Of a stretch of DNA of 64,000 bases, positions 4,770 to 58,132 are shown in pieces. This DNA comes from an uncultured virus (IMG/VR IMGVR_UViG_2855689977_000003) (taxonomy: Duplodnaviria > Heunggongvirae > Uroviricota > Caudoviricetes): IMG/VR virus record IMGVR_UViG_2855689977_000003. One strand, 5' to 3'. The position numbers and the translations under genes are program-made. Below the pieces are notes generated by a model that was not told where the DNA came from, ran no database searches, and saw nothing but the letters and a program-made list of their open reading frames with translations. Each line of letters starts with the position of its first letter. The stretch's first letter is position 1.

Positions 4770-6484
4770 GCCACACCCCGACCCCGGAGCAGGACGCGAT
4801 CGTTGAGGGCGGCCTGACCGGCGACGACATCACCATCGAGGCCGGCGCCGGTACCGGCAAGACCAGCACCCTCAAGCTGTTCGCCCGGGCCGCTGGCCGC
4901 AAGCGCGGTGCGTACCTCGCCTACAACAAGTCGATCGCCACCGACGCGGCCAAGGAGTTCCCCTCCACCGTCGTCTGCAAGACCGCGCACTCCTTTGCCT
5001 ACGGCGCGGTCGGCCGCCAATACGCGCATCGCCTCAACGGGCCCCGGGTGCCCGCACGGCAGGCCGCCATCATCCTCGGCCTCAACGAGCCGGTGAAGGT
5101 CGGCGAGACGATGCTCGCGCCGCAGCAGCTCGCCCGCTTGGTCGCCGAGACCATCCAGCGGTTCTGCTACAGCGACGACCGGCAGATCCAGCGAATGAAC
5201 GTGCCGCTGGTCAACGGCCTCGACAAGGCCGGCCAGGCGGAGCTCGCCAAGTACCTCGTCCCGATCGCCCAGAAGGCGTGGGACGACGACCTCACCCAGC
5301 TCAACGGGCAGCTCCGGTACACGCACGACTGCTACCTCAAGCAGTGGATCCTCACCGACCCGGTAATCCACGCCGACTACGTCCTCCTCGACGAGGCGCA
5401 GGACTCCAACCCCGCGGTCGCCGGGCTCGTCTCCCGTCAGCCCGCCCAGCGGATCCTCGTCGGCGACCGCGCCCAGGCCATCTACGGCTGGCGCGGCGCC
5501 ACCGACGCGATGGCCAGCTTCGACGGCCGCCGCTTCCAGCTGAGCCAGTCCTTCCGCTTCGGGCCGGCAGTGGCGGCTGAGGCCAACAAGTGGCTGTCGC
5601 TGCTCGACAACACCGACCTACGGCTGACCGGCTACGAGCGGATCCAGTCCCGCGTGGAGCCCCTCGACGCCCCGGACGCCGTGCTGTGCCGGTCCAACGC
5701 CGGCGCCATCATCCGCGTCATCGACGCCCTCGGGCAGGGCCGCCGCGCCGCGCTGGTCGGCGGCGGCAACGACATCCGGCGGATGGCCGAGGCCGCCGAG
5801 CGGCTCCAGGCCGGCATCCCCACCGACCACCCCGACCTGTTCGCCTTCACCAGCTGGCGGGAGGTCCAGGAGTACGTCGAGATGGACGCGGGCGGCTCCG
5901 ACCTGCGCGTGTTCGTCCGCCTCATCGACAAGCACGGCGCCCGCGAGGTCATGCGGGTGTGCGACGCCCTGGTCGACGAGCGGTACGCCGACACCATCGT
6001 GTCGACAGCGCACAAGGCAAAGGGCCGCGAGTGGGGCCGGGTGCTGATCGCGGACGACTTCCCGGAGCCGAAGGTCAAGGAGGACGGATCGACCCGGATC
6101 GCCCGGGACGAGGTGATGTTGGCGTACGTCGCGGTGACCAGGGCTCAGCAGGTGCTCGACCGGTACGGCCTGTCCTGGGTGGACCGGTACGCCGGCGGCC
6201 CCGTGCCGGCCGCCGCGCCGGTGCCGGTGGTGGGGAAGGTGCACCCGGAGCACGCGATTCTGCCGGACGCGCCGGACCCCCTCGCGGAACTGGCCGGAAT
6301 TTCAGACGACGCCGACACGATGCCGCTCGTGGAGCACCCTGCCGACGTCATCGCCGAGGAGCTGACCGGCCCCACCCCGGCGCCCGGTGCGGGCTGCACG
6401 GGAGGGCGGCCGTGCTTCCTGTGCGACCCGGCGGTCCGCGCCACCTGGCCGGCACCGGTGACCGCCGGAGCGAGCCGTGGCTGA
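4766..6484 (+). CDS. UvrD/Rep-like SF1 helicase
   Basis: PTPEQ, AGAGTGKT, LLDEAQD, VGDRAQAIYGWRGA, STAHKAKGREW and YVAVTRA motifs. Confidence 0.92.
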   Translation: MSHTPTPEQDAIVEGGLTGDDITIEAGAGTGKTSTLKLFARAAGRKRGAYLAYNKSIATDAAKEFPSTVVCKTAHSFAYGAVGRQYAHRLNGPRVPARQAAIILGLNEPVKVGETMLAPQQLARLVAETIQRFCYSDDRQIQRMNVPLVNGLDKAGQAELAKYLVPIAQKAWDDDLTQLNGQLRYTHDCYLKQWILTDPVIHADYVLLDEAQDSNPAVAGLVSRQPAQRILVGDRAQAIYGWRGATDAMASFDGRRFQLSQSFRFGPAVAAEANKWLSLLDNTDLRLTGYERIQSRVEPLDAPDAVLCRSNAGAIIRVIDALGQGRRAALVGGGNDIRRMAEAAERLQAGIPTDHPDLFAFTSWREVQEYVEMDAGGSDLRVFVRLIDKHGAREVMRVCDALVDERYADTIVSTAHKAKGREWGRVLIADDFPEPKVKEDGSTRIARDEVMLAYVAVTRAQQVLDRYGLSWVDRYAGGPVPAAAPVPVVGKVHPEHAILPDAPDPLAELAGISDDADTMPLVEHPADVIAEELTGPTPAPGAGCTGGRPCFLCDPAVRATWPAPVTAGASRG

Positions 6485-7630
6485 CGTCATCCAGTTCCCC
6501 GGGGCCGGCACGGTGCCGGCCCTGGGGCCCCGGGCGGTCCCCGCCGACCTGGACGGCATGGGGGAGCGGTACATCGCGTACTGCGAGGCCCGCGACAGCG
6601 GCCGGGAGGACGAGGCCAACAAGCTGGCCCGCGCCGTCGCCGACGACGTGCCGGCCTGGCTGGGCGAGGTCGCCCGCGTCGAGGCACTCCGCCAGGAGCT
6701 GGCGGCCGAGGTGAACCGGCTGAAGGGCGGCGCGTGATGGCCGCTCGACGAACCCTGAACAACTTCGGCCGGCAGCGGGCCGCCGTGCCGACCGTCATCG
6801 GCCGCTGCAAGGTCTACGGCGACCCCATCCGCACCGGCGACGACACCGTCTGGCTGGCCGAGCCGGTGGGCCTGTCCCACCGGGAATGCAAGCAGCGTGC
6901 CGACGCCGCGGCCGTGCTCGAGGACGGGGCTCCGTGATGGCCACGCCGACCTGCCTCGACACCATCTGCACTTGCGGCTGCGCCAAGGCCTGCCATCGGG
7001 CCGCACTGCGATGGGGCCAGAAGACCTGGGAGAAGTGCCGTCACTGCGACGACTGCCAGGAGTTCACTTCAGGGCCGGCCCGCCGGCGGCCGCCGGAGCC
7101 CGAGGTGCTGGACCGGCAGGAACGATGGGCGTGCCGGGCCTGCGGCGCCCGCTACGGCAAGCCGTACGGCGACCACGAGTGCGGGCCGCTGACCCCCGTC
7201 ACGGTCACCATCGCGGTCCGGACGCCGGAGGTGGCCCGGTGAGCCGCCGCCAGCGCCGCCGCCCGGGGCGTACCCATCCGTACACCCCGTCCGGGGTGAT
7301 CCCCGCCGACCACAACGGGCTGAAGCCGTGCATCTGCGGCCGGGCCAAGGCCAACGCCGTGCACGACCAGCGGGTGTCCGCCGAGGTGGAAGCCGCCCAG
7401 GCCGAACACCTCCGCCGGATCGGAGACGACCTGTGATCGGCCAGTGGATCGGCGCGAGCATCCTCCTCGGCCGCCCCGTGCCCGCCGACAGGCCGTACCC
7501 GCACATCTGCGGGTCGGTGATGGCCGCCGGGCTGATGACGGGCCGGCCGGTCCGGGTCGGCCACCGGGACTGTGCGGCGTGCGCCCAGATCGCCGCCGCG
7601 GCCAACGTGCGCATGGGAGACGACCGGTGA
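6477..7630 (+). other. Run of about five small coupled hypothetical genes, several Cys-rich
   Basis: ORFs at 6477-6737, 6734-6937, 6934-7242, about 7239-7436 and about 7433-7630 with overlapping stop/start codons. Confidence 0.55.
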
Positions 7631-8690: not shown

Positions 8691-9593
8691 GTGAGCTACC
8701 AGGCCGTGCAGTGGGCCCTCGACGACGCCCCCATGCTCCGGACCAAGTCCGGGCACCCCGACACGACCGCCCGCGGCGTCCTCATCGCCCGCGCCGAGCG
8801 AGCCGACGAGTTCGGCCGCGACACCCACGCCGCGATCACCGACGTCATCTGGCGCACCGGCTACGACGCCCGCACCATCCAGCGCGCCCAGGAACGCCTG
8901 GAGGCCGCCGGACTGCTGATCCCGGACGGCACCACCCGGTGGGGCACGCCCCGCTGGAACCTCGACATGACCAAGAAGCGCGACCCGGCCGAGATGGCTC
9001 AGTTAGAGGCCGACATCGATGAGAAGAGGGCGGCTGAGGCGGCCCGGGTGCGGGATTACCGGCGCAAGCAGAAGCGGCAGCGTACGGACGCAGAGTCAGT
9101 ACGTACGGGTTCGGTGTCAGTACGTACGGACGCAGACGACGTACGTACGGATTCTGGCGACGTACGTACGGACGCAGTGCCGCCCGAACCACCCGTGAAC
9201 CTCCCGGGAACCCCCCAAGAACCACCCCTGGAACCTCCCTCTGGGGGCACGCTGCCCCCAGACCCCCTGCGCCCCCAGTCGCCTACGGCTCCTGGGAACG
9301 GGATTGAAAGCTCACTCTCTGAGGACGGCGAGCAACCACCTCAGCCTGAGACCGCAACTTACGACCGCACGCGCGAAGCCGACCCCGCGCCGGCCCTCCG
9401 CCTGGTCCCCGGCAACCCCGACGCAACTCCCACCGAGAACCGGCCCAGCCTGTTCCCCGCCCCGGTGCCCAGCCAGCCTGGCAACCCGCTGCGCCGCCCC
9501 AACCGGGCCGCCCAGGCCATCGCTGAGGCCACCGCACGCCGCCAGGCAGCCCGCGACGCGTACCAAGCCCAGCGAGAGGCAGCAGGCGAATGA
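8691..9593 (+). CDS. Replication initiator (lambda O-like layout)
   Basis: N-terminal wHTH 'MSYQAVQWAL..RTIQRAQERLEAAGLL'; internal iteron array. Confidence 0.75.
   Translation: MSYQAVQWALDDAPMLRTKSGHPDTTARGVLIARAERADEFGRDTHAAITDVIWRTGYDARTIQRAQERLEAAGLLIPDGTTRWGTPRWNLDMTKKRDPAEMAQLEADIDEKRAAEAARVRDYRRKQKRQRTDAESVRTGSVSVRTDADDVRTDSGDVRTDAVPPEPPVNLPGTPQEPPLEPPSGGTLPPDPLRPQSPTAPGNGIESSLSEDGEQPPQPETATYDRTREADPAPALRLVPGNPDATPTENRPSLFPAPVPSQPGNPLRRPNRAAQAIAEATARRQAARDAYQAQREAAGE
9078..9178. repeat. 21-bp-period iterons (putative ori)
   Basis: GTACGTACGG at 9099, 9120, 9141 and 9162, plus a partial copy at 9078. Confidence 0.8.
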
Positions 9594-13138: not shown

Positions 13139-13426
13139 ATGCTGAGCACCTTCCGCAAGAAGCCCGTCGAGATCCAGGCCATGCAGTGGACCGGCGAGAA
13201 CTCCGGCGACCTCTACCGCTTCGCGGCAGGCCACTTCGCCGTGATGGACGAGCAGGACCGCGCCAACAGCGACGATCCCGAGGCGACCGCGCAGATCTTT
13301 GACGTGCTGCACTCCACCTGGGTGCTGGTCTACACCGGCGACTGGATCATCCGAGGCGTGAAGGGCGAGATGTACCCGTGCCGCCCCGACGTCTTCGAGG
13401 CGACCTATGAGCCGGTCGCGGGCTAA
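13139..13426 (+). CDS. Conserved phage protein (KKPVEIQAMQWTG..GDWIIRG..YPCRPDVFEATYE family)
   Basis: Recognisable motif family; near-identical copy at 56688-56981. Confidence 0.85.
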   Translation: MLSTFRKKPVEIQAMQWTGENSGDLYRFAAGHFAVMDEQDRANSDDPEATAQIFDVLHSTWVLVYTGDWIIRGVKGEMYPCRPDVFEATYEPVAG

Positions 13427-32331: not shown

Positions 32332-33258
32332 GTGACCAGACTTCTATGGCTGCCCCAGATCCTCCGCGTCGCCGGGCTGACCGTGCACGAGGTCGACGGG
32401 TGGCGCGAGCGCGGCTCGTCCGACTACGACCCGCGTGGCGTCATCTGCCACGCCACCGCCGGCAGCTCCACGTCCACGGACGCCGGTGAGATCGGCGTGT
32501 TGCTGAACGGATCCACCAGCGCGCCGCCACCGATCGCGCAGCTGTACCTGTCCCGCACCGGCACCTGGCATGTCGTCGCGTCCGGACGCTGCAACCACGC
32601 CAAGGTCGGGTGGGACGGCCCGCTCAAGGGCTACGGCAACACCCACCTGCTCGGGATCGAGGCGCAGAACGACAACCGCGGCCAGGCGTGGCCAGCGGTG
32701 CAGCTCGACGCCTACCAGCGGGGTGTGGCCGCGATCTGCAAGCACATGGGCTGGACGGCCGCCCGCAACGTGGCCGCCCACCGCGAGCACCAGCCGGGCG
32801 CGAAGACCGACCCGGCCGGCATCGACATGAAGACATTCCGGTCGCGGGTGACTGCGATCCTGGCAGGAGAGGACGACGACATGACGACCCCAGACCAGTT
32901 CCTGGCCATCCTGAAGGACCCGTCGGTGGCCGCCGAGATGCGCCGTCTCGCGGTGAGCTACACCGGTGGTGGCATCCCGGCCGGGAAGAACGTGCTCAAC
33001 GTGTGGAACGACACGCTGGCCACCGTGAAGGCGCTGGGCGAGGTGATCGCCCGGGAGTCATCCAGCCCGGCCGAGGTGCGGGCGCTGCTGGCCGAGCTGC
33101 CGAAGCCAGATCCCTTCGACGTCGACCAGCTGGCCGACGACGTGGCCGCGCGGGTGCTGGCCGGCCTGCCGACCAGCGACGGCCCGGTCAGCCGCGAGGA
33201 CCTGGTGGCCGCGATCCGCACCGTCCTGGCCTCGCTGGCCGCCGCACCGCAGGGCTGA
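32332..33258 (+). CDS. Endolysin, N-acetylmuramoyl-L-alanine amidase
   Basis: CHATA, NHA, GIEAQN and AHREH..KTDP zinc-amidase motifs. Confidence 0.9.
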   Translation: MTRLLWLPQILRVAGLTVHEVDGWRERGSSDYDPRGVICHATAGSSTSTDAGEIGVLLNGSTSAPPPIAQLYLSRTGTWHVVASGRCNHAKVGWDGPLKGYGNTHLLGIEAQNDNRGQAWPAVQLDAYQRGVAAICKHMGWTAARNVAAHREHQPGAKTDPAGIDMKTFRSRVTAILAGEDDDMTTPDQFLAILKDPSVAAEMRRLAVSYTGGGIPAGKNVLNVWNDTLATVKALGEVIARESSSPAEVRALLAELPKPDPFDVDQLADDVAARVLAGLPTSDGPVSREDLVAAIRTVLASLAAAPQG

Positions 33259-34079: not shown

Positions 34080-34439
34080 ATGCCCGACAAGTGGTCTGCG
34101 CGCATCCGCACCGCCTGGCCGATGCTGCTCGGCTACCTCGCCGCCCGGCTCCTCGTCATCGGCGCACCCGTCGCCACCTGGCTGCACGACACGTTCGGCC
34201 TGGAGGTGACGGAGCCGCAGATCGCCGCTGCCCTCGGCATCATCCTCGGCTTCGCCATCTACGAGGCGGGCCGGTGGCTGGAGCGCCGCGCCGGAGAGGG
34301 CCGACCGTCGAAGGTGGCCCGGTTCGTCGGCAGGCTGCTGCTGAGTCTGGGCTTGTCGACCGGTCAGCCGGTGTACGCCCTGCCGGGTCAGCGGGTGCGG
34401 GTGCTCGGCAGTGACGGCAGCATGCGACCGCCCCGGTAG
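34080..34439 (+). CDS. Holin-like membrane protein
   Basis: RBS AGGAGG; 'IRTAWP..Y..RWLE..LL.LG..PVY'. Confidence 0.7.
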   Translation: MPDKWSARIRTAWPMLLGYLAARLLVIGAPVATWLHDTFGLEVTEPQIAAALGIILGFAIYEAGRWLERRAGEGRPSKVARFVGRLLLSLGLSTGQPVYALPGQRVRVLGSDGSMRPPR

Positions 34440-34490
34440 TATCACGATCGCGGCGCACGCCTGGATGGATCCCCGGGCAGCGCCGACCAA

Positions 34491-34533
34491 GACGAACGGC
34501 CCGCTCTCCCCGATCGGAGGGTGGGCCGTCGTC
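34491..34533. terminator. Hairpin ending the late operon
   Basis: GACGAACGGCCCGCTCTCC / GGAGGGTGGGCCGTCGTC. Confidence 0.65.
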
Positions 34534-34604
34534 ATGCTGGTGGCCGCCAGGGCCAGCCGTCTTACCGATGGTCGCTAGCCCGTAACGAACCGTAACATTC
34601 GCTG

Positions 34605-34868
34605 ATGTCCGTCGATCCGGCGTCACTCATAGCGTTGCTGCTGCTACTCCTGATGCTCGCCGTGCAGATCATCATCGTGCCGCTGATGAAGCGGGCCGCC
34701 CAGATGGGACGCCGTCCGCCAACCCGCAGCAGCGCCGATCAGGAGACCGCGGCCTCACCCTCCTGCCAGGAGGGTGAGGCCGCTTCGTCGTCTCCGGGCT
34801 ACACCGCGGACCGGGCCTCCCGGCTGTCCCGGATGCGCCGCTTGGCGGTGCTCTCCGACACCTGGTAG
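34605..34868 (+). CDS. Small leaderless hydrophobic protein
   Basis: TAACAT 6 nt before ATG; TM 'LIALLLLLLMLAVQIIIVPLM'; 3' part runs through a hairpin. Confidence 0.45.
   Translation: MSVDPASLIALLLLLLMLAVQIIIVPLMKRAAQMGRRPPTRSSADQETAASPSCQEGEAASSSPGYTADRASRLSRMRRLAVLSDTW
34749..34783. terminator. 17-bp perfect inverted repeat, probable bidirectional terminator
   Basis: GCGGCCTCACCCTCCTG-c-CAGGAGGGTGAGGCCGC. Confidence 0.75.
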
Positions 34869-35266
34869 TCCGCCATCACCCGGCGGACGATCTCCACGTA
34901 CGGCACGCCCTGCCGGTCCATCCGGTCGACGGCCTCCTCGAGGGATTCGGGCTTCTCGTCTTCCAGGTCGAGATCGAGCGCCTCGTCACGCGGCTCCTGG
35001 TCGACGCGGACGCGCCGGCCGCCAACCTCTGCGATCCGCCCCCACCAGCTGGTGTCACGGTCGGTGTCATCGGTGTCAGACACCGAGCTGACCTGCGAAG
35101 TGTCACCGCCATCGGTGTCATCCCCCTCGGTGGGGGAGGGGAGGCCTCGGCGCATCCACACGTCGTGCAGGGTGGCGAAAGCCACGAAGACGACGGCAGC
35201 GATGAGCAGCGCGACGGGGCCACCCCAGCCGCGGGACGGCTCGGCAGCAGCGAGGGTGAACATCAT
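34799..35266 (-). CDS. Membrane-anchored protein with C-terminal HTH-like region
   Basis: N-terminal TM; C-terminal 'YVEIVRRVMADYQVSESTAKRRIR'. Confidence 0.7.
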   Translation of the reverse strand: MMFTLAAAEPSRGWGGPVALLIAAVVFVAFATLHDVWMRRGLPSPTEGDDTDGGDTSQVSSVSDTDDTDRDTSWWGRIAEVGGRRVRVDQEPRDEALDLDLEDEKPESLEEAVDRMDRQGVPYVEIVRRVMADYQVSESTAKRRIRDSREARSAV

Positions 35267-35862
35267 GCGGCTCCAAACAGCCAGGCGGGCAGAGGCGCGA
35301 CGAGACCGGTGAGGAAGTCGACGCAGCCTCGGGTGACATCACCGACGGTGCCGCCCGGCAGGTCGGCCATGAGGCCGAGCAGCACGGCGGCGATCCACAG
35401 GCGGGTGTTGAGCCGGTACAGCGGGCTCTGCGGGAACGTGAGGGTGGCGAACCGGCCGAGCTTCTTGCTGGCCTTGACCGGCAGCATGCACCCGATGACG
35501 TAGATGAACAGCATCCCCACCAGGGCGCCCAGGATTGCGTTGATCGACGCGCCGGCGACGTAGGCGCCGCCGGTCGCGTCGAGCAGCTGCTCGATGAAGC
35601 TGCTGGCGGTCTGCACCGTCCACTGGTCGAGCGGCGAGCCGTCGAAGCCCTCGCGGATAGCCGGCACAGCGAGGAGGAACGCGAGCCGGTCGCGGATGCT
35701 GTTGGGGCCGACCGACATGTAGTCGATGACCAGGGCGAGCAGCAGCAGCACCGCGACGGCGGTCGGGGACATGGTGTGCTCGAGCAGAGTTGCCCCCTTG
35801 TCCGGGGAGGGCGCTGGACTCGGGCTCGGTGTAGGGGCGAGCAGCATGATCGTGTGCAGCAT
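35263..35862 (-). CDS. Multi-pass membrane protein
   Basis: Several hydrophobic segments; coupled to both neighbours. Confidence 0.75.
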   Translation of the reverse strand: MLHTIMLLAPTPSPSPAPSPDKGATLLEHTMSPTAVAVLLLLALVIDYMSVGPNSIRDRLAFLLAVPAIREGFDGSPLDQWTVQTASSFIEQLLDATGGAYVAGASINAILGALVGMLFIYVIGCMLPVKASKKLGRFATLTFPQSPLYRLNTRLWIAAVLLGLMADLPGGTVGDVTRGCVDFLTGLVAPLPAWLFGAA

Positions 35863-36098
35863 CAGGCGCCGCTCCAGTCGAGCACCTTGGTTCCGGTCGC
35901 GGCGTCGCAGACCTCCAACCTCGGGGCGTCCATCGGCTCGTTGGCCGCGCGGGCGTCACGGGTGAGCGCCTGGAGCTGCTGGCTGAGGATGCTCGCGTAG
36001 CCCGGGACCGACAGGTCGAGGACAACCACGTAGCGGCGGCTGGCCAGCACCTCGTACTGGCCGTCGAAGATGTGCAGGCGGTACGGCAGGGCGGCCAT
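35862..36098 (-). CDS. Hypothetical protein (78 aa)
   Basis: Stop/start overlaps on both sides. Confidence 0.65.
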   Translation of the reverse strand: MAALPYRLHIFDGQYEVLASRRYVVVLDLSVPGYASILSQQLQALTRDARAANEPMDAPRLEVCDAATGTKVLDWSGA

Positions 36099-36445
36099 CA
36101 GAGATCCTTCTCAAGGTGGGTGAGCACCGGGAACAGGCTGATGCCGAGCAGCACCATGCCAGCTGCAGCGACCCACGCGGAGGTGGTGTGCCCGGTGAGG
36201 ATGGCGGCCAGGGCGGCGACGAGGTCGGCGAGGACGCCGGCCGTGAGGGCCACGGCGATCCGGGTCCAGTTCACCGGCCGGGGCACGGCGAGGACGAAGG
36301 GTCGGGCGCCGGCGGCGCGCAGTTGTCCGATCCGCTCGTAGAGCTGCTGGAGACCGTTGGCGGGCAGGGTGATGATTCGGCCGGCGAGGGCGCGCAGCGG
36401 CGAGCCTGGGGGGATGTAGCCGCACACGTGGTGGGTCGGGGTCAT
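36098..36445 (-). CDS. Two-TM membrane protein
   Basis: RBS GGAAGGA; two hydrophobic helices. Confidence 0.65.
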   Translation of the reverse strand: MTPTHHVCGYIPPGSPLRALAGRIITLPANGLQQLYERIGQLRAAGARPFVLAVPRPVNWTRIAVALTAGVLADLVAALAAILTGHTTSAWVAAAGMVLLGISLFPVLTHLEKDL

Positions 36446-36523
36446 GATGGTGGTCCTTCCTTCCGGGGAGGGCCCGGGGCGCGGCGCTTGCTCTTGGTCG
36501 GGTGAGCCGCGCCCCGGGGGCGT

Positions 36524-37786
36524 CTACTTCTGGCTGCTCTTCCAGCGCTTGACGGTGGCCACGCTGACCTCGGCGGCCTCGGCCAGCTCCGGGTTGGTCG
36601 GCTCGCGCTTGAGCCGGCGGGTGAGCCGGGCGTGAGCCTGGCTGAGCTTCTTGGCGGTGTCGGTCGCGGCCGGTTTGGTGACCCGTTCGGTGACCCTGCC
36701 GCGAGCCGGTACCTGAGCCGCTGCGGCGGGGGCGGATGAGCCATTGACCGGCTCACGGACCGGCTCATCCGGGGCGTCCCGGACCAGCTCAGGCAGCGGG
36801 CCGATCTGCGCCGCGAGGCGAGCCGGCATCCGGATCCCGCCCAGCTCCACCAACGGCTCACGGCGGGGCCGCACCGGCAGGGCGTGGTGGTGGGCGACGT
36901 GCACCTGGCGGCGGAGCGTGTGGACCGCGCGCCGGGTGTCGGCCAGCGTCTGGTCGAGCTGCTGGCGCGTCCAGTCGTCCACCTCGCCAGCCCGGGACGG
37001 CGGCGGGGGCGTCAGGTCCAGCTCGGCGAGCCGGGGCGCGCCCAGCCACGGCTGGGCGTTGCTGACGTAGGAGTCGAAGAGGCCGATGAGGAACGCGGTC
37101 CCGGCCGCGCCGACCGGGCCAACCGAGTGGGCCAGCGCGCCGCCGAGGGCGTCCAGGCCGGTGCCGGCCCACCCGCCGGCCATGTTCAACGCCACCGACG
37201 TACCAAGGGCCGCCCACTCGGCGACGGTCGCCCGCCAGTCGGTGTCGCCACCCGACGACCGCAGGATCGCCCGGCCGACGATGATCAGCGCAACGATGGT
37301 CAGGAGTGCGGGCTCCATCGCCCACGCCGCCCACCACCCGGCCGACTCGTGGTCGAAGCCGAGGAGCCGGACCACGCCGGCCTGAACCCCGGCGGTGGAC
37401 CACGCGCCGAACGCGATCAGGACGGGGACGCCAGCCAGGAGGGTGGCCGACCGGACTCGGGCGATGCGCAGGGCACGCATCTCGGCCGACCGATTGATGT
37501 CGGTACGGATGCGAGCGCGGGCGCCGGAGCGGGTGGCGCGGCGGTACAGCTCGGCGAGGGCTGCGGCCTCTTCCCCGTCGCGGTCGCGTCCGCGGCGGGC
37601 CCGGCGGCGGGTCTCGGTCAGCTCTTCGACCTGGGCGAGGGCGTCGCGGTGCTCGGCGTCGAGGCGGCGGCGCTCGCGCAGGTCGGTGCGCTGCACGTCG
37701 ATGACGGCGCGCTGCTCGGCGAGCTGCTCGGCGAGATCTCGCGCGGTACGCGCCTCGGCTGGCGGCCTTCGGCGGATCAGCTTCAT
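36524..37786 (-). CDS. SpdB/DUF2637-like protein: coiled coil, about 4 TM, C-terminal HTH
   Basis: 'WSTAGVQ..WAMEPAL..SVALN..HSVGP'; C-terminal 'REPTNPELAEAAEVSVATVKRW'. Confidence 0.7.
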   Translation of the reverse strand: MKLIRRRPPAEARTARDLAEQLAEQRAVIDVQRTDLRERRRLDAEHRDALAQVEELTETRRRARRGRDRDGEEAAALAELYRRATRSGARARIRTDINRSAEMRALRIARVRSATLLAGVPVLIAFGAWSTAGVQAGVVRLLGFDHESAGWWAAWAMEPALLTIVALIIVGRAILRSSGGDTDWRATVAEWAALGTSVALNMAGGWAGTGLDALGGALAHSVGPVGAAGTAFLIGLFDSYVSNAQPWLGAPRLAELDLTPPPPSRAGEVDDWTRQQLDQTLADTRRAVHTLRRQVHVAHHHALPVRPRREPLVELGGIRMPARLAAQIGPLPELVRDAPDEPVREPVNGSSAPAAAAQVPARGRVTERVTKPAATDTAKKLSQAHARLTRRLKREPTNPELAEAAEVSVATVKRWKSSQK

Positions 37787-37797
37787 GCCGGCCAGTA

Positions 37798-37831
37798 TGA
37801 CACACTAGGCACGCTTGACACATTAGGCACG
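37798..37831. promoter_or_regulatory. Direct-repeat operator over the promoter of the 37786 operon
   Basis: TGACACAYTAGGCACG at 37798 and 37816; -10 CATACT at 37794-37799 (-). Confidence 0.65.
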
Positions 37832-37891
37832 GTGAGGGGAGCGCTCGTGTCGATCACTGCCACAGTCGGCCCGCCCGCTACGATCGGCACG

Positions 37892-38128
37892 ATGGCCAGG
37901 ACGGTGGAGGAACTGGAGCGCGCGCTCGACGCGGGCGAGTGGCTGCGGCCCGCCGATGTCGCTGAGCTGCTCGGCGTCTCCAAGAGCACCGTGGTGCGGA
38001 TGCTGAACGCCGACCCGCCCGGGCTCCGCTTCCGCCGGAAGGCCGGCACCGGACGGCACCGCGAGGTTCATCCCGAGGACGTGCGCCGGCAGCTGGCTGC
38101 CCGCCGCCAGGTGCACGGCGAGCAGTAG
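37892..38128 (+). CDS. Divergent HTH regulator
   Basis: 'WLRPADVAELLGVSKSTVVRML'; leaderless after TACGAT. Confidence 0.8.
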   Translation: MARTVEELERALDAGEWLRPADVAELLGVSKSTVVRMLNADPPGLRFRRKAGTGRHREVHPEDVRRQLAARRQVHGEQ

Positions 38129-38139
38129 CCCAGACGCAG

Positions 38140-38172
38140 AGCCGCCCCCGACTGCACTGGTCGGGGGCGGCT
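38140..38172. terminator. Bidirectional hairpin between convergent genes
   Basis: AGCCGCCCCCGAC / GTCGGGGGCGGCT. Confidence 0.7.
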
Positions 38173-38184
38173 TCGTTGTGCGGG

Positions 38185-38385
38185 TCAGCGGGCGAACGCA
38201 CCGCCCCTGGCGTTGGTCACGAACGCCCGCCAGTCACCCGGGGCGAACACCAGCGCCGGGCCGGTCTTGTCCTTCGAGTCCCGCACCCCGACCGCGCCGG
38301 TCACGTAGGCGACCTCCACGCAGTTGTCGCAGTTCGGGCCGCTCTTGCTGCTCTTGAACCATGTCGCGCCGGTCAGATTGATCAT
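38185..38385 (-). CDS. DUF397-family protein
   Basis: 'WFKSSKS..NCVEVA..VGVRDSKD..GPALVF..W.AF'. Confidence 0.93.
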   Translation of the reverse strand: MINLTGATWFKSSKSGPNCDNCVEVAYVTGAVGVRDSKDKTGPALVFAPGDWRAFVTNARGGAFAR

Positions 38386-38603
38386 CGCTTCGCTCCGTAT
38401 TCCGTCGGCCGCTGGTTTCGGCCGGTCGTCTGCTTGGGTGGTCCAAGGTGGTAGCGGTCGGTCTCGATGAGCGCCGCGAAGGCATCGGCGCGGGCCTGGC
38501 ATCGACGCGGAGTGTGGCAGATGGGGCAGACACCGCCGCGCTGCCGATGATCGTCAAGGATCTGCCACCAGCCTGCCACCTGATCGGCGCGGGGCGCGGT
38601 CAC
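38382..38603 (-). CDS. Small Cys/His protein
   Basis: 'DDH..CPICHTPRRC'; coupled on both sides. Confidence 0.6.
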   Translation of the reverse strand: MTAPRADQVAGWWQILDDHRQRGGVCPICHTPRRCQARADAFAALIETDRYHLGPPKQTTGRNQRPTEYGAKR

Positions 38604-38797
38604 CACAGCCCCGCGATACGACCAACCGCGGCGACCAGGACGACGGCGCCGATGACGCAGCCGTAGACCACCTCGCGGGTGGCAAGGGGGAGCCGGCGCG
38701 GCCGGTGGGGAACGGTCTGCCCGTCGGGCTGCGGTGGCAGGCCGTACGGGTCTGGGTGCACGGGCGGGAGCGGGCCTGTGTGGGGGCGCTCAACCAT
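38600..38797 (-). CDS. Small C-terminal-TM protein
   Basis: RBS AGGAGG; Pro-rich then hydrophobic. Confidence 0.6.
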   Translation of the reverse strand: MVERPHTGPLPPVHPDPYGLPPQPDGQTVPHRPRRLPLATREVVYGCVIGAVVLVAAVGRIAGLW

Positions 38798-38919
38798 CGC
38801 CGGATCCTCCTCAGGGGTGGAGGCGGGACCGGGCGGGGAAGCGGGTGAAAGTCCGGGGGGACCTGCCACCGGTCCCCCGCCCGGCCGGGCGCTCCCTGCT
38901 GAGGAGAGGCCCTGAAGGC

Positions 38920-38963
38920 AACTTAGAGTGCAGAGTATGCAGAGTCAACAGAGCATGCACAGT
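38920..38963 (-). promoter_or_regulatory. Housekeeping-sigma promoter overlaid by 9-bp-period repeats
   Basis: TTGACT-17 nt-TAAGTT on the minus strand; CAGAGT-like units at 38931, 38940, 38949 and 38958. Confidence 0.7.
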
Positions 38964-39013
38964 GTGTCATCGGAGGTGCCACGATCGGGGGGCTGAGGAG
39001 AGGTGGCCCCGCC

Positions 39014-39241
39014 ATGCCCCGAAAGTCCATCCGTGACCAGGTGATCGAGGACGTCACCAACTCGATCCGGTCCGGCCAGCTCCGGCCGGGCGACAAGCTG
39101 CCGTCCATCGCCGAGCTGTGCGCGACGTACAAGGCAAGCGCCACCCCGATCCGGTTGGCGCTGGTGCTCCTCGACGAGCGCGGCTGGATCGAGGTACATC
39201 AGGGCAAGGGGAGCTACGTGGCCGAGCGCCCACCGGCCTGA
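39014..39241 (+). CDS. GntR-family wHTH-only regulator
   Basis: 'IRSGQLRPGDKLPSIAEL..GKGSYV'. Confidence 0.88.
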   Translation: MPRKSIRDQVIEDVTNSIRSGQLRPGDKLPSIAELCATYKASATPIRLALVLLDERGWIEVHQGKGSYVAERPPA

Positions 39242-39338
39242 TCGGCCGAGCGGCGACCGATGCAATGGAAGTGCGTAGGACCCGGGGATCCCCGGTCCCT
39301 CGGCTCCTAAGTGGATATGCGCTCCGTACCGTGCGGGA

Positions 39339-39743
39339 GTGATCGACTTCCGGGCGGAGCGGGCTGTCTACCAGCAGCTCGCCGATCTGCTGCGCGAGCA
39401 GATCGTGTCCGGGGACGTCGAGCCTGGCGGGCTGCTGCCGTCCAGCACTCGACTGGAGCAGGAGCACGGGGTGAGTCGGGAGACCGTGCGGCGGGCGCTG
39501 GCGGTGCTGCGCTCGGAGGGCTTGGTGGTCACCGAGCCCAGCTACGGTACGCGGGTGCGGGTGGCCGAGGAGCGGGCGCGGGTTGCGGTGCCCCGCGGGG
39601 CGTCGGTGATCAGCCGGCCTGCCACGGTCGAGGAGCGCGAGCAGCTGGACGTGGCGTTGGGCGGTCACGTCCTTGTGGTGATGGTCGGCGGTCGGGTGCG
39701 TGGCCGGTACGCGGCGGATCGGACCGAGTTGACCTTCTCATGA
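39339..39743 (+). CDS. GntR-family regulator
   Basis: 'VYQQLADLLREQIVSG..LPS..VSRETVRRAL'; leaderless after TACCGT. Confidence 0.88.
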   Translation: MIDFRAERAVYQQLADLLREQIVSGDVEPGGLLPSSTRLEQEHGVSRETVRRALAVLRSEGLVVTEPSYGTRVRVAEERARVAVPRGASVISRPATVEEREQLDVALGGHVLVVMVGGRVRGRYAADRTELTFS

Positions 39744-41007: not shown

Positions 41008-41051
41008 ACTCGTAATGCGTAGGTCGACGGTTCGATTCCGTCAGGCGGCTC
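41008..41051 (+). other. att core: 3' half of tRNA-Thr(CGT), not a complete tRNA
   Basis: Anticodon loop CT-CGT-AA, stem half TGCGT, AGGTC, T-arm GACGG-TTCGATT-CCGTC, acceptor half AGGCGGC-T; the 5' half is absent. Confidence 0.9.
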
Positions 41052-44844: not shown

Positions 44845-46117
44845 GTGACCTGCAAAGACGTGAAGGACCAGGCCGAGTTGGATGCGGCGCTGGCCGACAA
44901 GGCCGTGACGTGCGTGCATGTCCGGTCGGAGGCCGGTGTGTGGCTGTCGGTGTCGTCCGGCTCGGCCACCGTCGAGGCGTACGGCTCGGCCACCGTCGAG
45001 GCGTACGGCTCGGCCACCGTCGAGGCGTCCGGCTCGGCCACCGTCCGGGCGTCCGGCTCGGCCACCGTCGAGGCGTCCGGCTCGGCCACCGTCGAGGCGT
45101 CCGGCTCGGCCACCGTCCGGGCGTNNNNNNNNNNNNNNNNNNNNNNNNNNNNNNNNNNNNNNNNNNNNNNNNNNNNNNNNNNNNNNNNNNNNNNNNNNNN
45201 NNNNNNNNNNNNNNNNNNNNNNNNNNNNNNNNNNNNNNNNNNNNNNNNNNNNNNNNNNNNNNNNNNNNNNNNNNNNNNNNNNNNNNNNNNNNNNNNNNNN
45301 NNNNNNNNNNNNNNNNNNNNNNNNNNNNNNNNNNNNNNNNNNNNNNNNNNNNNNNNNNNNNNNNNNNNNNNNNNNNNNNNNNNNNNNNNNNNNNNNNNNN
45401 NNNNNNNNNNNNNNNNNNNNNNNNNNNNNNNNNNNNNNNNNNNNNNNNNNNNNNNNNNNNNNNNNNNNNNNNNNNNNNNNNNNNNNNNNNNNNNNNNNNN
45501 NNNNNNNNNNNNNNNNNNNCGGCTCGGCCACCGTCGAGGCGTCCGGCTCGGCCACCGTCGAGGCGTCCGGCTCGGCCACCGTCCGGGCGTCCGGCTCGGC
45601 CACCGTCCGGGCGTCCGGCACCAGCAGCGTGCACGCCCACCACGACGCCACGGTCACCGCTGGCAGTCACGTCGCCGTCCACCTCCACTCCGGGCAGGCC
45701 ACCGTCACCGGCGGCGTCGTCATCGACATCACCCAGCTTGACCTGTCGACAGCCGCCGTCTGGTGCGACCACCACGGCATCCCCGTCACCGACGGCAAGG
45801 CCGTCCTCTACAAGGCCCTCGGTGACGACCTGACCGCCGGCCAGGACTACGGCAAGCCCACTGTCTACGCGATCGGCGAGACCGTCACCTGCGACGACTG
45901 GGCTGACAACGCGGACTGCGGTGGCGGACTGCACTTCTCGCCGACCCCGCACATGGCCTCGCAGTACGCGTCCAGCGCGACCCGCTGGCTGGCGGTGGAG
46001 GTCGACGTGGCGACGTTGCGGCCGATCGACGGCGGCACGCCGAAGGCCAAGGCCCCGGGCTGCCGGGTGCTGCGGGAGGTCGACGCATTCGGCCGCGAGC
46101 TGGCCGCCAAACCCTGA
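44845..46117 (+). CDS. Octapeptide-repeat protein with conserved C-terminal domain (spans the gap)
   Basis: [S/Y]GSATV[E/R]A repeats on both sides of the N gap; C-terminal 'YKAL..CGGGLHF..KAK..VLREVD'. Confidence 0.8.
44956..45613 (+). repeat. 24-bp coding tandem repeat; assembly gap 45125-45519
   Basis: T(C/A)CGGCTCGGCCACCGTC(GAG/CGG)GCG; 7 units before and 4 after the gap. Confidence 0.95.
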
Positions 46118-56099: not shown

Positions 56100-58132
56100 T
56101 GTCCCACACCCCGCCCGCCCCGCGCCGCCAGCCCGCCTACGACGCCGTGTACGCCGTCATCCGCCAGTACCCGCCGATCACCAGCGGCGACATCATGCCG
56201 GCCGTCGAGAACGGCCGCGTGTGGCGTGCTGTCCATGCCGCTCTCGACGCTGTGGAGCCTGCCGCGCATCTGCTGCCGCTGCTCGACCTCACCGCCGACG
56301 AGCTGGACGCGCTCCGCCTGGCCGCCGCGAAGTACCGGGCGATCGACACCAAGGTGCCGGCCCTCAACTCCGCCCTGGACAAGCTCACCACCACCGACAC
56401 CACCGAGGAGACGTCATGAGCCAGCCTGACCCGATCACCGACCGGCCGCCCATGCCGCCCGCCGATTTCCTCGCCGCCGTCACCATGGTCGGCGAGCGCG
56501 CCGCCGCCGGATACGGCTGGCAGGAGGGCTACCTTGCCGGACGCGCCGCCGCCGCTGCCGACATTCGCGCCCGCATCGCCCAGTACACCGACCCGACCGC
56601 GACGGAAGCCGAGCGGGATGTGGCTCACGGGCTGCGTACCGCCGCTGACATCGCCGCCCGGCTCACCACCACCGAGGAGACCGACCGATGACCGCGCTGA
56701 CGTTCCGTAAAAAGCCCGTCGAGATCCAAGCTATGCAGTGGACCGGCGACAACTCTGGCGACCTCTACCGCTTCGCGGCGGGCCACTTCGCCGTGATGGA
56801 CGAGCAGGACAGGGCCAACTGTGATGATCCGGAGGCGACCGCCCAAATCTTCGACGTGCTGCATTCCACCTGGGTGCTGGTCTACACCGGCGACTGGATC
56901 ATCCGGGGTATCCAGGGCGAGCACTACCCGTGCCGCCCCGACGTGTTCGAGGCGACCTACGAGCGGGTGGACCGTGGCTGAGTCTCGTCGGTTGCGTACT
57001 CAGGCCGACGAGCACGGCAACATCGCCGACGACTGCGGCCACTGCACCCTGCTGCCCGGCGTCAACGGCCCCGTGCGTGTCGCCCAGGTCGGCTGCCCGG
57101 TGCACAGCGAGCACCCGACTGCGCGCCGGTTGCGTACTCAGGCTGAGCGGGACGCCGACGGGCAGGCGTGGCGCGCCCCGGGCTGCACATCAGGCCAGCC
57201 GTGGATCTGCACCCCTGCCGACTGCCCCGGATGCTTCAACCCGCACTGCTGGATCACCGACGGGATCACCTGCCGCAACGGGTGCACCGTGGTCCCGCAC
57301 AACCAGTTGACGCCCGACCAGCTCGCAGCGATCAGGGAGCGGATGGTCACGGACATGCGCGCGGCCCGGGATCGCTTCCTTGCCGCTGTGGCAACCGAGA
57401 GCCCGCGCGTGCTGGTCGACCCGGACATCTGGGTCCACATGGAGCCGATCGCCCCGCCGCGCCGCCGTTGGTGGCACCGACTCACCCGGAGAGCCCGATG
57501 ACCACCGAACAGCTTGACCTCTTCGCCCCGCAGCAGACCGACGCACCGCTGACCGTCGCCGACCTCGACGAATGGATCGCCGCTACCCGCGCCGTCGCCA
57601 ATCCGCACGTCGCCGGGCATTGGCCGAACGAGTGGGCTCGCGCCGGCCTCGGTGCACTGCTCGGCGAGGGGATCCCGCATCGCCGCTGGTCGACGCGGGA
57701 ACTGCTCGATGCGCTGGCCCGCGCCCGCCAGATCGCCATCCGCACCGAGGAGCCCGCCCGACTCACCCGGAGGAACCCGTGACCCAGCCCGCCTACACCG
57801 ACGCCGACGTCGACCAGCTACACGAAACGTTCGCCAAGGCGTGGACTCTGCACCTGGGTCAGCACTCGGGTCAGCACTCGGCGCTCGCCGGTTGCAACTC
57901 GGAGCTGAACACCGAGGACTGCTGCGACCGAGAGGGCCTGCGTGCCGTGCTGGCCCACCTCGCTGACGCCGGCCGGCTTACCACCAACGGCCGGTGCGGC
58001 GACATCGCCCCCAACCTCTCGCTGATCGCCAGCCACATCCGGCAGGTCTGCTGCCTCACCGCAGGCCACGCCGGATGGCATCGCGGCGACGACGGCAGCG
58101 AATGGGTCGAGCACAACGAGGAGCCCGCCTGA
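56099..58132 (+). other. Run of six small coupled genes
   Basis: 56099-56419, 56416-56691, 56688-56981, 56974-57501, 57498-57782 and 57779-58132. Confidence 0.65.
56688..56981 (+). CDS. Near-identical copy of 13139-13426
   Basis: Direct comparison of the translated ORFs. Confidence 0.85.
   Translation: MTALTFRKKPVEIQAMQWTGDNSGDLYRFAAGHFAVMDEQDRANCDDPEATAQIFDVLHSTWVLVYTGDWIIRGIQGEHYPCRPDVFEATYERVDRG

Follow-up and report, generated by a model that had tools for sequence, protein, structure and literature searches.

This report concerns an operon of five co-oriented minus-strand genes, here called A through E, at positions 34799–37786 of a 64,000-nucleotide stretch of DNA (hereafter "the window", meaning that whole stretch) from the uncultured virus record IMGVR_UViG_2855689977_000003 of IMG/VR. 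In the explanation that we favor, and to which we give a probability of roughly 60%, the locus is a separately regulated accessory operon of a temperate phage of the type of Micromonospora phage pMLP1, and it constitutes a pump-less membrane module for transfer or spread, similar to the Spd modules of actinomycete plasmids and of the integrative and conjugative elements of actinomycetes (AICEs), under BldC-like repression. This reading follows from the order of the genes and from the linkage of their relatives to FtsK/TraB translocases. In actinomycete conjugation double-stranded DNA is moved by a single FtsK-like pump together with poorly understood "spread" membrane proteins, and the present operon suggests that, in a lineage of Micromonosporaceae temperate phages, accessory proteins of the spread type are kept together as a conserved cassette that in most cases lacks the pump. 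The five proteins belong to no described family; the N-terminal domain of A and the B, C, D and E proteins make up new families.

The five genes were called by their third-position G+C content, which is 0.87–0.95 (the window as a whole has a G+C content of about 71%). Kyte-Doolittle hydropathy (window 19, threshold 1.5) gives membrane segments in A, B (two), D (at least three) and E (one) and none in C, so the description of five co-oriented genes, four of them with transmembrane segments, in the initial annotation of this DNA is borne out. B and C share one base, as do C and D, D and E have 4 bases in common, and a gap of 78 bp lies between A and B; genes in translationally coupled operons are packed in this way. 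The operon and the control elements ahead of it are as follows (AAs, amino acids; HTH, helix-turn-helix).

36524–37786, minus strand: gene A, 420 AAs, first gene of the operon (open reading frame with a third-position G+C of 0.91).
36098–36445, minus strand: gene B, 115 AAs, two C-terminal membrane segments (open reading frame and hydropathy).
35862–36098, minus strand: gene C, 78 AAs, soluble (open reading frame, no membrane segment by hydropathy).
35263–35862, minus strand: gene D, 199 AAs (or about 170 if an internal methionine is the start), polytopic membrane protein and most conserved member of the set (open reading frame and hydropathy).
34799–35266, minus strand: gene E, 155 AAs, one membrane helix and a C-terminal three-helix HTH-like domain (open reading frame, hydropathy and structure model).
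37794–37831, minus strand: predicted operon promoter and operator, the hexamer CATACT plus four 9-bp direct-repeat units.
37892–38128, plus strand: divergent HTH_17 (MerR/Xis/BldC-type) gene, 78 AAs (Pfam HTH_17, PF12728, 31.5 bits against a cut-off of 27).

The initial annotation placed HTH-like motifs at the ends of the first and last proteins, which is upheld for A and is no more than plausible for E. The model of A (AlphaFold2, 31 sequences, mean pLDDT 78) has an 84-residue N-terminal helix (residues 15–98), four membrane helices between residues 101 and 243 (101–142, 149–177, 184–205 and 211–243), a further helix, a disordered linker and a confidently predicted three-helix HTH at 374–419 (pLDDT about 97). 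Pfam Sigma70_r3 matches A at residues 378–414 (E 1.7e-5; 25.2 bits, just short of the 25.3 cut-off), and this C-terminal HTH is the one match that A through E gave in searches of Pfam, PHROGs and NCBIfam. The even number of membrane helices and the basic N-terminus suggest that both ends of A are cytoplasmic. The model of E (10 sequences, mean pLDDT 67) consists, in order, of a conserved RGWGGP motif, one membrane helix, an acidic disordered stretch, a hairpin and a three-helix end (residues 109–154, pLDDT about 91). E has no Pfam match, and its best Foldseek rows are mostly HTH domains, yet only at E values of about 1; we therefore call the end of E plausibly HTH-like and do not assert that it is an HTH.

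The neighborhoods of the relatives carry the comparison with transfer systems (the loci fetched for this purpose bear our L numbers). The closest homologues found in the A and D searches have names that are overwhelmingly those of Micromonospora and other Micromonosporaceae, so the host is Micromonospora-like and not a Streptomyces. Homologues of A number 130 at E≤1e-5 and share residues of about 20–250, so that the A family is the first 250 residues; the C-terminal parts vary and include HTH domains of several Pfam types. Sixteen of 274 other genomes of the genus have an A homologue, and 15 loci of 14–20 kb each were fetched around such matches. In 11 of these 15 an FtsK/TraB-like P-loop ATPase, always of one BLAST cluster, is encoded a few genes downstream; some members of this cluster have clear FtsK_SpoIIIE domains, and others have weak FtsK/HerA matches plus a C-terminal winged helix. 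The A-bearing loci include AICE-like ones (with DUF6284, Prim-Pol, DUF3631, an excisionase-type HTH and an integrase), plasmid-like ones (relaxase, sigma factor and GGDEF genes) and prophages (amidase, holin and tail genes). A tblastn search of PLSDB with A gave one match, an 18.7-kb Actinomadura plasmid whose order (GntR / BldC-family gene, A homologue, four small genes, "DNA translocase FtsK") mirrors that of pIJ101, which is korA (GntR) / tra, spdA, spdB, orf, kilB; the same search of the INPHARED phages gave none. In two of the AICE-like loci a DUF6284 gene lies two genes ahead of the A homologue, and on a Streptomyces plasmid a DUF6284 gene precedes spdB, which offers a positional hint for the Spd analogy. 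A is followed by B, C, D and E in only one of the 15 loci (L030).

Two other features of the related loci may be recorded here. Four plasmid-like loci (L024, L025, L026 and L032) have a conserved ECF-type sigma factor gene and a GGDEF diguanylate cyclase gene ahead of the A homologue, a pair that hints at control of a transfer operon by c-di-GMP. In five loci (L024, L025, L032, L070 and L071), of plasmid-like and phage type, the A/D operons have next to them or within them genes for small proteins of two helices that match the PycTM family of Pfam (Pycsar effector; E values down to 1.6e-14).

Gene D has the wider distribution. A profile search with D gave 265 protein clusters at E≤0.001, and among the 119 matching clusters listed besides the window's own none has a functional name or a Pfam domain. 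D homologues are present in 24 of 400 other genomes of the family (five of the 24 are weak partial matches) and in 15 of 69 genera with that of the window counted, and a further copy, 92% identical, lies on another contig of the genome to which the window belongs; tblastn of PLSDB with D gave no match. Tblastn of A through E against 17 D-bearing loci of 20 kb each, fetched from the family genomes, found C in 11, E in 9, B in 4 and the membrane domain of A in none. Among IMG/VR contigs D is present in 31; C accompanies it in 23, E in 21 and B in 10, and in 5 an FtsK gene is directly downstream. Homologues of B are also found in L030 and in pMLP1, and a C-D-E core, often with B, recurs across the family genomes, the IMG/VR contigs and phage pMLP1. 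In 11 of the 17 genome loci the fetched 20 kb also contain phage late genes (homologues of the amidase, tail or tape-measure genes of the window's prophage), and the cassette has the same position in the prophage arm in most of the phage-bearing loci.

Five of the 17 D-bearing loci (L072, L073, L074, L076 and L077) have a complete FtsK gene, with alpha, motor and gamma domains (E 1e-53 to 1e-59), directly after D or E. The neighbors of these genes are two Prim-Pol genes in L074, GntR-UTRA, NUDIX and TrwC relaxase genes in L077, an integrase gene in L076 and phage lysis genes in L072. Taking genome loci and viral contigs together, a pump is directly downstream in 10 of the 48 fetched relatives, in AICE-, plasmid- or phage-like contexts. 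AICEs are defined by Int, Rep and an FtsK/SpoIIIE-type Tra (Ghinet et al. 2011, PMC3218068), and elements with Int, Rep and Tra that carry homologues of the operon genes are found in L023, L029, L074, L076 and L077. The gene in first position differs from locus to locus: it may be of the A type, of an A2 type that shares only its C-terminal part with A, a gene for a 268-AA membrane protein, or a DUF2637+HTH gene. Its product is always a membrane protein but of different families, and the unit is thus modular, with the form [membrane protein, with a C-terminal HTH where detectable]-(B)-C-D-E-(FtsK). Two ways in which the idea of a module might have failed were named in the initial annotation, that the genes would not occur together elsewhere or that they would occur only next to traB. 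Neither is the case; the genes co-occur widely, and they do so with and, more often, without a translocase.

A separate observation on these loci concerns the sibling prophage on contig C94 of the window's own genome (L062, 11009–12796), which carries the second copy of B through E and in which a DprA-like gene and a phosphoribosyltransferase gene directly follow the E gene. PADLOC identifies this pair as ShosA (E 2.7e-69) and ShosT (E 1.5e-12), and the prophage in the window has no such insert.

The closest phage parallel is pMLP1 (CP058906.1), which has B-C-D-E in the same order at 5860–7476 with 53–68% identity. There too the cassette lies between the GntR/integrase side and the tail genes, and the terminase, portal and tail proteins of the two phages are related. 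They differ in that the first-position gene of pMLP1 (404 AAs) is not an A homologue and in that a gene for a 147-AA protein with two membrane segments (5343–5786) is inserted before B. The pMLP1 record was deposited unannotated, and a literature search for it returned unrelated papers only, with no functional study of its cassette genes found. The phage is said to exist in both free and integrated form. We calculated dN/dS by the method of Nei and Gojobori for B through E against five relatives (19 gene pairs). The ratio is below 0.6 in 17 of the 19 pairs, and for gene D it is 0.09–0.56; such values indicate that the genes are maintained rather than decaying, and by this measure the cassette appears to be under purifying selection in the pMLP1-type phages.

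The window's operon itself lies in a prophage, as the initial annotation held. A tRNA-Thr(CGT) gene ends 70 bases to the left of the window, and a 44-bp 3' part of it recurs exactly at window positions 41008–41051 and occurs twice more further to the right. The interval from the tRNA gene to 41008 contains an integrase gene (1–1485), helicase, methylase, terminase, portal, capsid and tail genes and an amidase endolysin gene (32332–33258), and a second set of integrase, repressor and antirepressor genes begins directly after 41051. The exact att repeats, which bracket the phage genes and the operon, and the phage gene content place the operon inside the first of at least two tandem prophages, where it occupies the arm between the lysis genes and attR together with a DUF397 gene and two small GntR genes. 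Small GntR genes also recur near the relatives, in 11 of the 15 A-bearing and 10 of the 17 D-bearing loci. The features concerned are these.

41008–41051, plus strand: 44-bp att core, exact repeat of the 3' part of tRNA-Thr, attR of the operon-bearing prophage and attL of the next.
39014–39241 and 39339–39743, plus strand: two small GntR-family genes, Kor/TraR-like neighbors of the operon (Pfam GntR, E 3e-19 and 1.5e-16).

We also considered whether the arm from 34.8 to 41 kb could be a separate integrated element. This was rejected, since copies of the att core occur only at the tRNA gene, at 41008–41051 and at the two sites further right, and since the same arm lies between the late genes and the integrase in pMLP1 and in other loci. 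Of the four copies of the att core on the contig three are exact 44-bp copies, and the fourth has 45 bp with 98% identity. No more than about 1.3 kb separates the last two, a spacing that suggests the remnant of a third insertion; the tailed prophages in tandem at this one tRNA-Thr(CGT) are at least two (window positions 1–41051 and 41051–64000). An 87-AA open reading frame (34605–34868, plus strand), strongly hydrophobic at its N-terminus and placed behind the lysis genes as a holin gene would be, is convergent with gene E and shares 70 bases with the 3' end of that gene. Either end may have been called wrongly, or there may be two overlapping transcripts. Gene 26 of phage phiC31 (gp26; L040, 37114–37638), which lies just before the integrase region of that phage, matches the small GntR protein of the window (tblastn E 8e-7), and small GntR genes near attP/int may be common to actinophages.

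Upstream of gene A a 105-bp spacer separates the operon from the divergent 78-AA HTH_17 gene, and in this spacer lies the direct repeat of 18-bp period that had been noted at the outset; both the small HTH gene and the repeat were confirmed. The repeat consists of two exact copies (37798–37813 and 37816–37831) of the 16-nt motif TGACACAyTAGGCACG. With up to three mismatches allowed this motif is found 3 times in the window, where 0.74 would be expected, and a count of 3 is reached by 4 of 100 shuffles; with up to two mismatches the whole genome has these two copies and one other site only. The two 18-bp copies also read as four 9-bp units, GTGnCwAnn (37796–37831), which overlap the hexamer CATACT (37794–37799, minus strand) that lies 7 nt ahead of the ATG of A, so that a leaderless transcript is implied. 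A NANNNT-like hexamer exactly 7 nt before the ATG is found in the window and in all nine further distinct loci that cover the region (eight loci were read first, then L082, L086 and L090, with L073 and L076 not read a second time; the L084 extract missed the region), and in those loci three or four tandem 9-bp units abut or overlap it; L085 has the repeats and lacks the hexamer-ATG spacing. A hexamer followed by 7 nt and the ATG is the geometry of a leaderless actinomycete promoter. A scan of 34300–39400 for consensus promoters and terminators gave no sites, and the leaderless promoter reading accordingly rests on the comparison of loci. For 34500–38500 a search for expression records listed neither a sequencing run nor an RNA holder.

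The 78-AA regulator also matches the TIGR01764 excisionase family (25.9 bits, below the 28.8 cut-off) and phrog_66, and its homologues are divergent from the operon in L063, L073, L076, L078, L080, L082 and L086. The sequence of the repeats varies with the class of the regulator: GTGnCwAnn-like units accompany homologues of the 78-AA HTH_17 protein in L063, L082 and L086, GCAACCyTn units accompany a second small HTH_17-like protein in L062, L065, L085 and L090, and L070 has TACAACTCT units. Binding of the repeats by the divergent protein is best supported by this co-variation, and we regard that protein as the probable repressor of the operon. The regulator gene may have a leaderless promoter of its own, with a CCGATCGTAnCGG block that is conserved in L063, L082 and L086.

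37879–37891, plus strand: putative leaderless promoter of the regulator gene, TACGAT and then 7 nt before the ATG.

A similar arrangement is known for BldC, a 68-residue MerR-like protein that oligomerizes head-to-tail on direct repeats and protects four tracts one helical turn apart between -60 and -10 of the smeA-sffA promoter; smeA-sffA encodes a small membrane protein and an FtsK-like translocase that it targets to septa (PMC5859096). The two systems have in common a small MerR/Xis-like HTH protein and four direct repeats spaced about one helical turn apart, to which binding is predicted in our case, and a target promoter that drives a membrane protein gene, the product of smeA working with an FtsK-like translocase. 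They differ in that the 78-AA protein resembles the sequence of the BldC structure (6ama_A) only weakly (E 0.3) and in that the repeats in the window have a 9-bp period and a different sequence. The putative operator-repressor pair is clear enough for quick testing.

The comparison with the Spd-TraB loci of pIJ101, pSVH1 and pSAM2 is one of layout. Thoma et al. (2015, PMC4447253) describe traB and traR as a kil-kor pair and the spd genes as short, with overlapping stops and starts, and report that SpdB2 is oligomeric, has four membrane helices and binds double-stranded DNA; te Poele et al. (2008, PMC2440964) describe the Spd proteins as few, small and often hydrophobic, and place GntR-type KorSA homologues on all AICEs. 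The present operon agrees with these systems in its small hydrophobic proteins encoded with overlapping stops and starts in one unit, in the four membrane helices of A (as in SpdB2; the DNA-binding end of A is predicted only), in its apparent control by a repressor, with GntR genes adjacent, and in having relatives directly upstream of FtsK/TraB genes in elements with Int, Rep and NUDIX genes. It differs in that it has no pump and no detectable SpdB sequence homology, in that its divergent regulator is of the HTH_17 and not the GntR type (the two GntR genes are 1.2–1.6 kb away), and in that its carrier is a tailed prophage of a Micromonosporaceae host. The likeness to a kil/kor-spd locus claimed in the initial annotation thus holds for the layout, to which the FtsK/TraB linkage of the relatives adds; no sequence homology to SpdB of the pIJ101 type or to DUF2637 could be shown.

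Nor can the operon be called an undescribed system without qualification, as the initial annotation would have had it. SpdB2 homologues are reported on the actinophages phiC31 and VWB, with the suggestion that they might spread phage DNA (Thoma et al. 2015, PMC4447253), so the idea of Spd proteins on actinophages is already in print; moreover B through E are in the deposited pMLP1 genome. The phiC31 and VWB genes are like ours in being spread-type membrane genes on temperate actinomycete phages with the same proposed role. Tblastn of the phiC31 genome with A through E gave nothing at E<0.1, so the phiC31 genes belong to other protein families. What is new here is the protein families, the modular structure of the unit, the split between pump-bearing and pump-less forms and the co-variation of operator and regulator.

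We infer the following mechanism from the models, the gene order and the repeats. A, with its four membrane helices and cytoplasmic HTH, and E, with its one helix and HTH-like domain, would hold DNA at the membrane; B and D would be their integral membrane partners and C a small soluble one. The complex might move or anchor the excised, plasmid-like phage genome at hyphal cross-walls, with a translocase that the host or a resident AICE provides in trans, or it might instead occupy the cross-wall route. The divergent 78-AA HTH_17 protein would keep the operon off by assembling, as BldC does, head-to-tail on the four 9-bp repeats over the -10 element, in a kor-like control of potentially toxic membrane genes. 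A bolder form of this proposal, which we find doubtful, is that the pump-less Spd-type module serves a lysis-free, conjugation-like spread of the excised, plasmid-like phage genome across cross-walls or to neighboring hyphae without virions, with a borrowed FtsK/TraB motor and BldC-like gating; if true, this would be virion-free phage spread that depends on another mobile element. If the operon is active in any such way, it would provide a handle on what Spd-type proteins do alone and on the spread of phages as DNA through the mycelium.

Several results weigh against the interpretation as a Spd-like transfer module. Sequence and structure comparisons do not connect the proteins to known Spd proteins or to any solved structure. 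In hhalign comparisons the A family scores a probability of 0.2% against SpdB of pIJ101 and again 0.2% against a five-member SpdB alignment, and BLASTP of D with SpdB gives E>5. With the A and E models Foldseek found no PDB match at E≤0.001, comparison of A, D and E with sequence profiles of the PDB brought up no hit under E 0.1, and the ESM Atlas search for D gave only unnamed clusters with scores below 0.9. The family libraries contain nothing that matches B through E, nor was a significant structural match obtained for them. The structure predictions and profile searches proposed in the initial annotation thus yielded the four-helix part and HTH end of A and the three-helix end of E, and no solved relative.

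The DUF2637 proteins, whose label UniRef gives to three A homologues, do not supply the missing connection. They resemble A in occupying the first position upstream of C-D (in L068, L075, L078 and two viral contigs) and in combining a membrane domain with a C-terminal HTH; A and its 30 aligned relatives differ from them in that none matches the Pfam model (PF10935; 0 of 31 at E≤0.1). An hhalign comparison of the A family with the DUF2637 alignment gives a probability of 1%, with no likeness in the membrane part, and a DUF2637 search of the window's own genome finds three other loci, A not among them. DUF2637 and SpdB themselves show no similarity by hhalign.

The pump is a further difficulty. 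TraB is the only protein essential for plasmid transfer and suffices alone (Thoma et al. 2015, PMC4447253). A PF01580 search of the whole genome gave 21 matches, none of them in the window, in agreement with the initial annotation, and Pfam finds no FtsK/SpoIIIE-type translocase domain in the A through E proteins; it follows that the cassette alone cannot pump DNA. The C-D-E core is without a pump in 12 of the 17 genome loci and 26 of the 31 viral contigs, and this pump-less majority may have a function of its own that is unrelated to transfer. Two dN/dS values also stand out, 0.93 for C against L063 and 1.17 for B against L030, and B is the least constrained gene. As for control, the direct repeat amounts to no more than two 18-bp copies, in the window taken alone it exceeds chance only modestly, and the 78-AA regulator could instead be the excisionase of the phage.

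The competing explanations must be set against the same facts. One, which we consider unlikely, is that the operon is an exclusion module: membrane proteins made in the lysogen would block incoming phage or AICE/plasmid DNA by occupying or disabling the recipient-side structure used by Spd/TraB complexes, and prophages would then have a new way of guarding hyphae against conjugative elements. The greater frequency of the pump-less form in phage contexts would suit this, as would the location of the operon in the accessory arm (lysis genes to attR) beside lysogeny-type regulators. The ShosTA defence pair directly after the E homologue of the sibling prophage indicates that this arm collects genes of benefit to the lysogen, and immunity functions are known from AICEs, Pif of pSAM2 being an example (te Poele et al. 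2008, PMC2440964). On the other hand, none of the five operon proteins has a match in PADLOC-DB 2.0 (only the regulator matches, to the generic HTH model mad1) and thus none is like a known exclusion or defence protein; two predicted cytoplasmic HTH domains would be unexpected in a simple entry block; and a dedicated repressor at the promoter suggests that the operon is normally off and not constitutive in lysogens. The PADLOC result likewise gives no support to the membrane defence system that the initial annotation had offered as its alternative. Defence of the abortive-infection type, with phage DNA sensed through the HTH domains, strikes us as very improbable: it would make use of the membrane proteins and predicted DNA-binding domains in a prophage accessory arm, and PycTM-type effector-like proteins do lie beside relatives of A in five loci, but no enzymatic or sensor domain is found in A through E and the FtsK/TraB linkage in AICE and plasmid contexts would go unexplained.

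Maintenance of a plasmid prophage is another reading that we hold to be improbable. A and E would tether an extrachromosomal phage replicon to the membrane, in a partition-like manner, for its inheritance in hyphae and spores; two membrane-anchored proteins with predicted HTH ends and the presence of the cassette in pMLP1 accord with this, while the arm contains no ParA/ParB-type gene, the relatives are linked to FtsK pumps and transfer genes and not to partition genes, and the element in the window is integrated. Finally, the operon might be a decaying fragment, the remnant of an AICE transfer module that was captured by a phage, lost its pump and has no present function. The absence of an FtsK gene, the exchange of the first gene for unrelated types and the frequent lack of B could be so explained, but we give this explanation very little credence: the five reading frames are intact with high third-position G+C, the pairs for D and E and most of those for C have dN/dS values far below 1, the promoter/operator layout is conserved, and the pump-less core has been kept in the same position across many genera and 26 viral contigs. 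A Spd-like transfer or spread module, of AICE ancestry, remains our preferred explanation of the locus.

Some further features of the window are recorded here. Beyond the regulator gene there is a terminator-like structure, situated between the convergent regulator and DUF397 genes, that was read from the sequence and was not reported by the consensus terminator scan.

38141–38179, no strand assigned: terminator-like GC-rich inverted repeat of 12 bp around a 7-nt loop, with a T-rich run behind it.

At 9081–9164, in the early part of the first prophage, there are three tandem units of 21 bp with a high content of CGTACGG, which may form an origin or an array to which a protein binds. The second prophage contains, at 44886–45703, an array of 24-bp tandem repeats with 12 registered copies, in which the G+C content falls to 0.57 and which is broken by 395 masked bases (45125–45519). 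The two tandem prophages also share a 269-nt stretch that is 89% identical between them (13148–13416 and 56700–56968, in a 95-AA early gene) and that is a possible substrate for recombination between the two.

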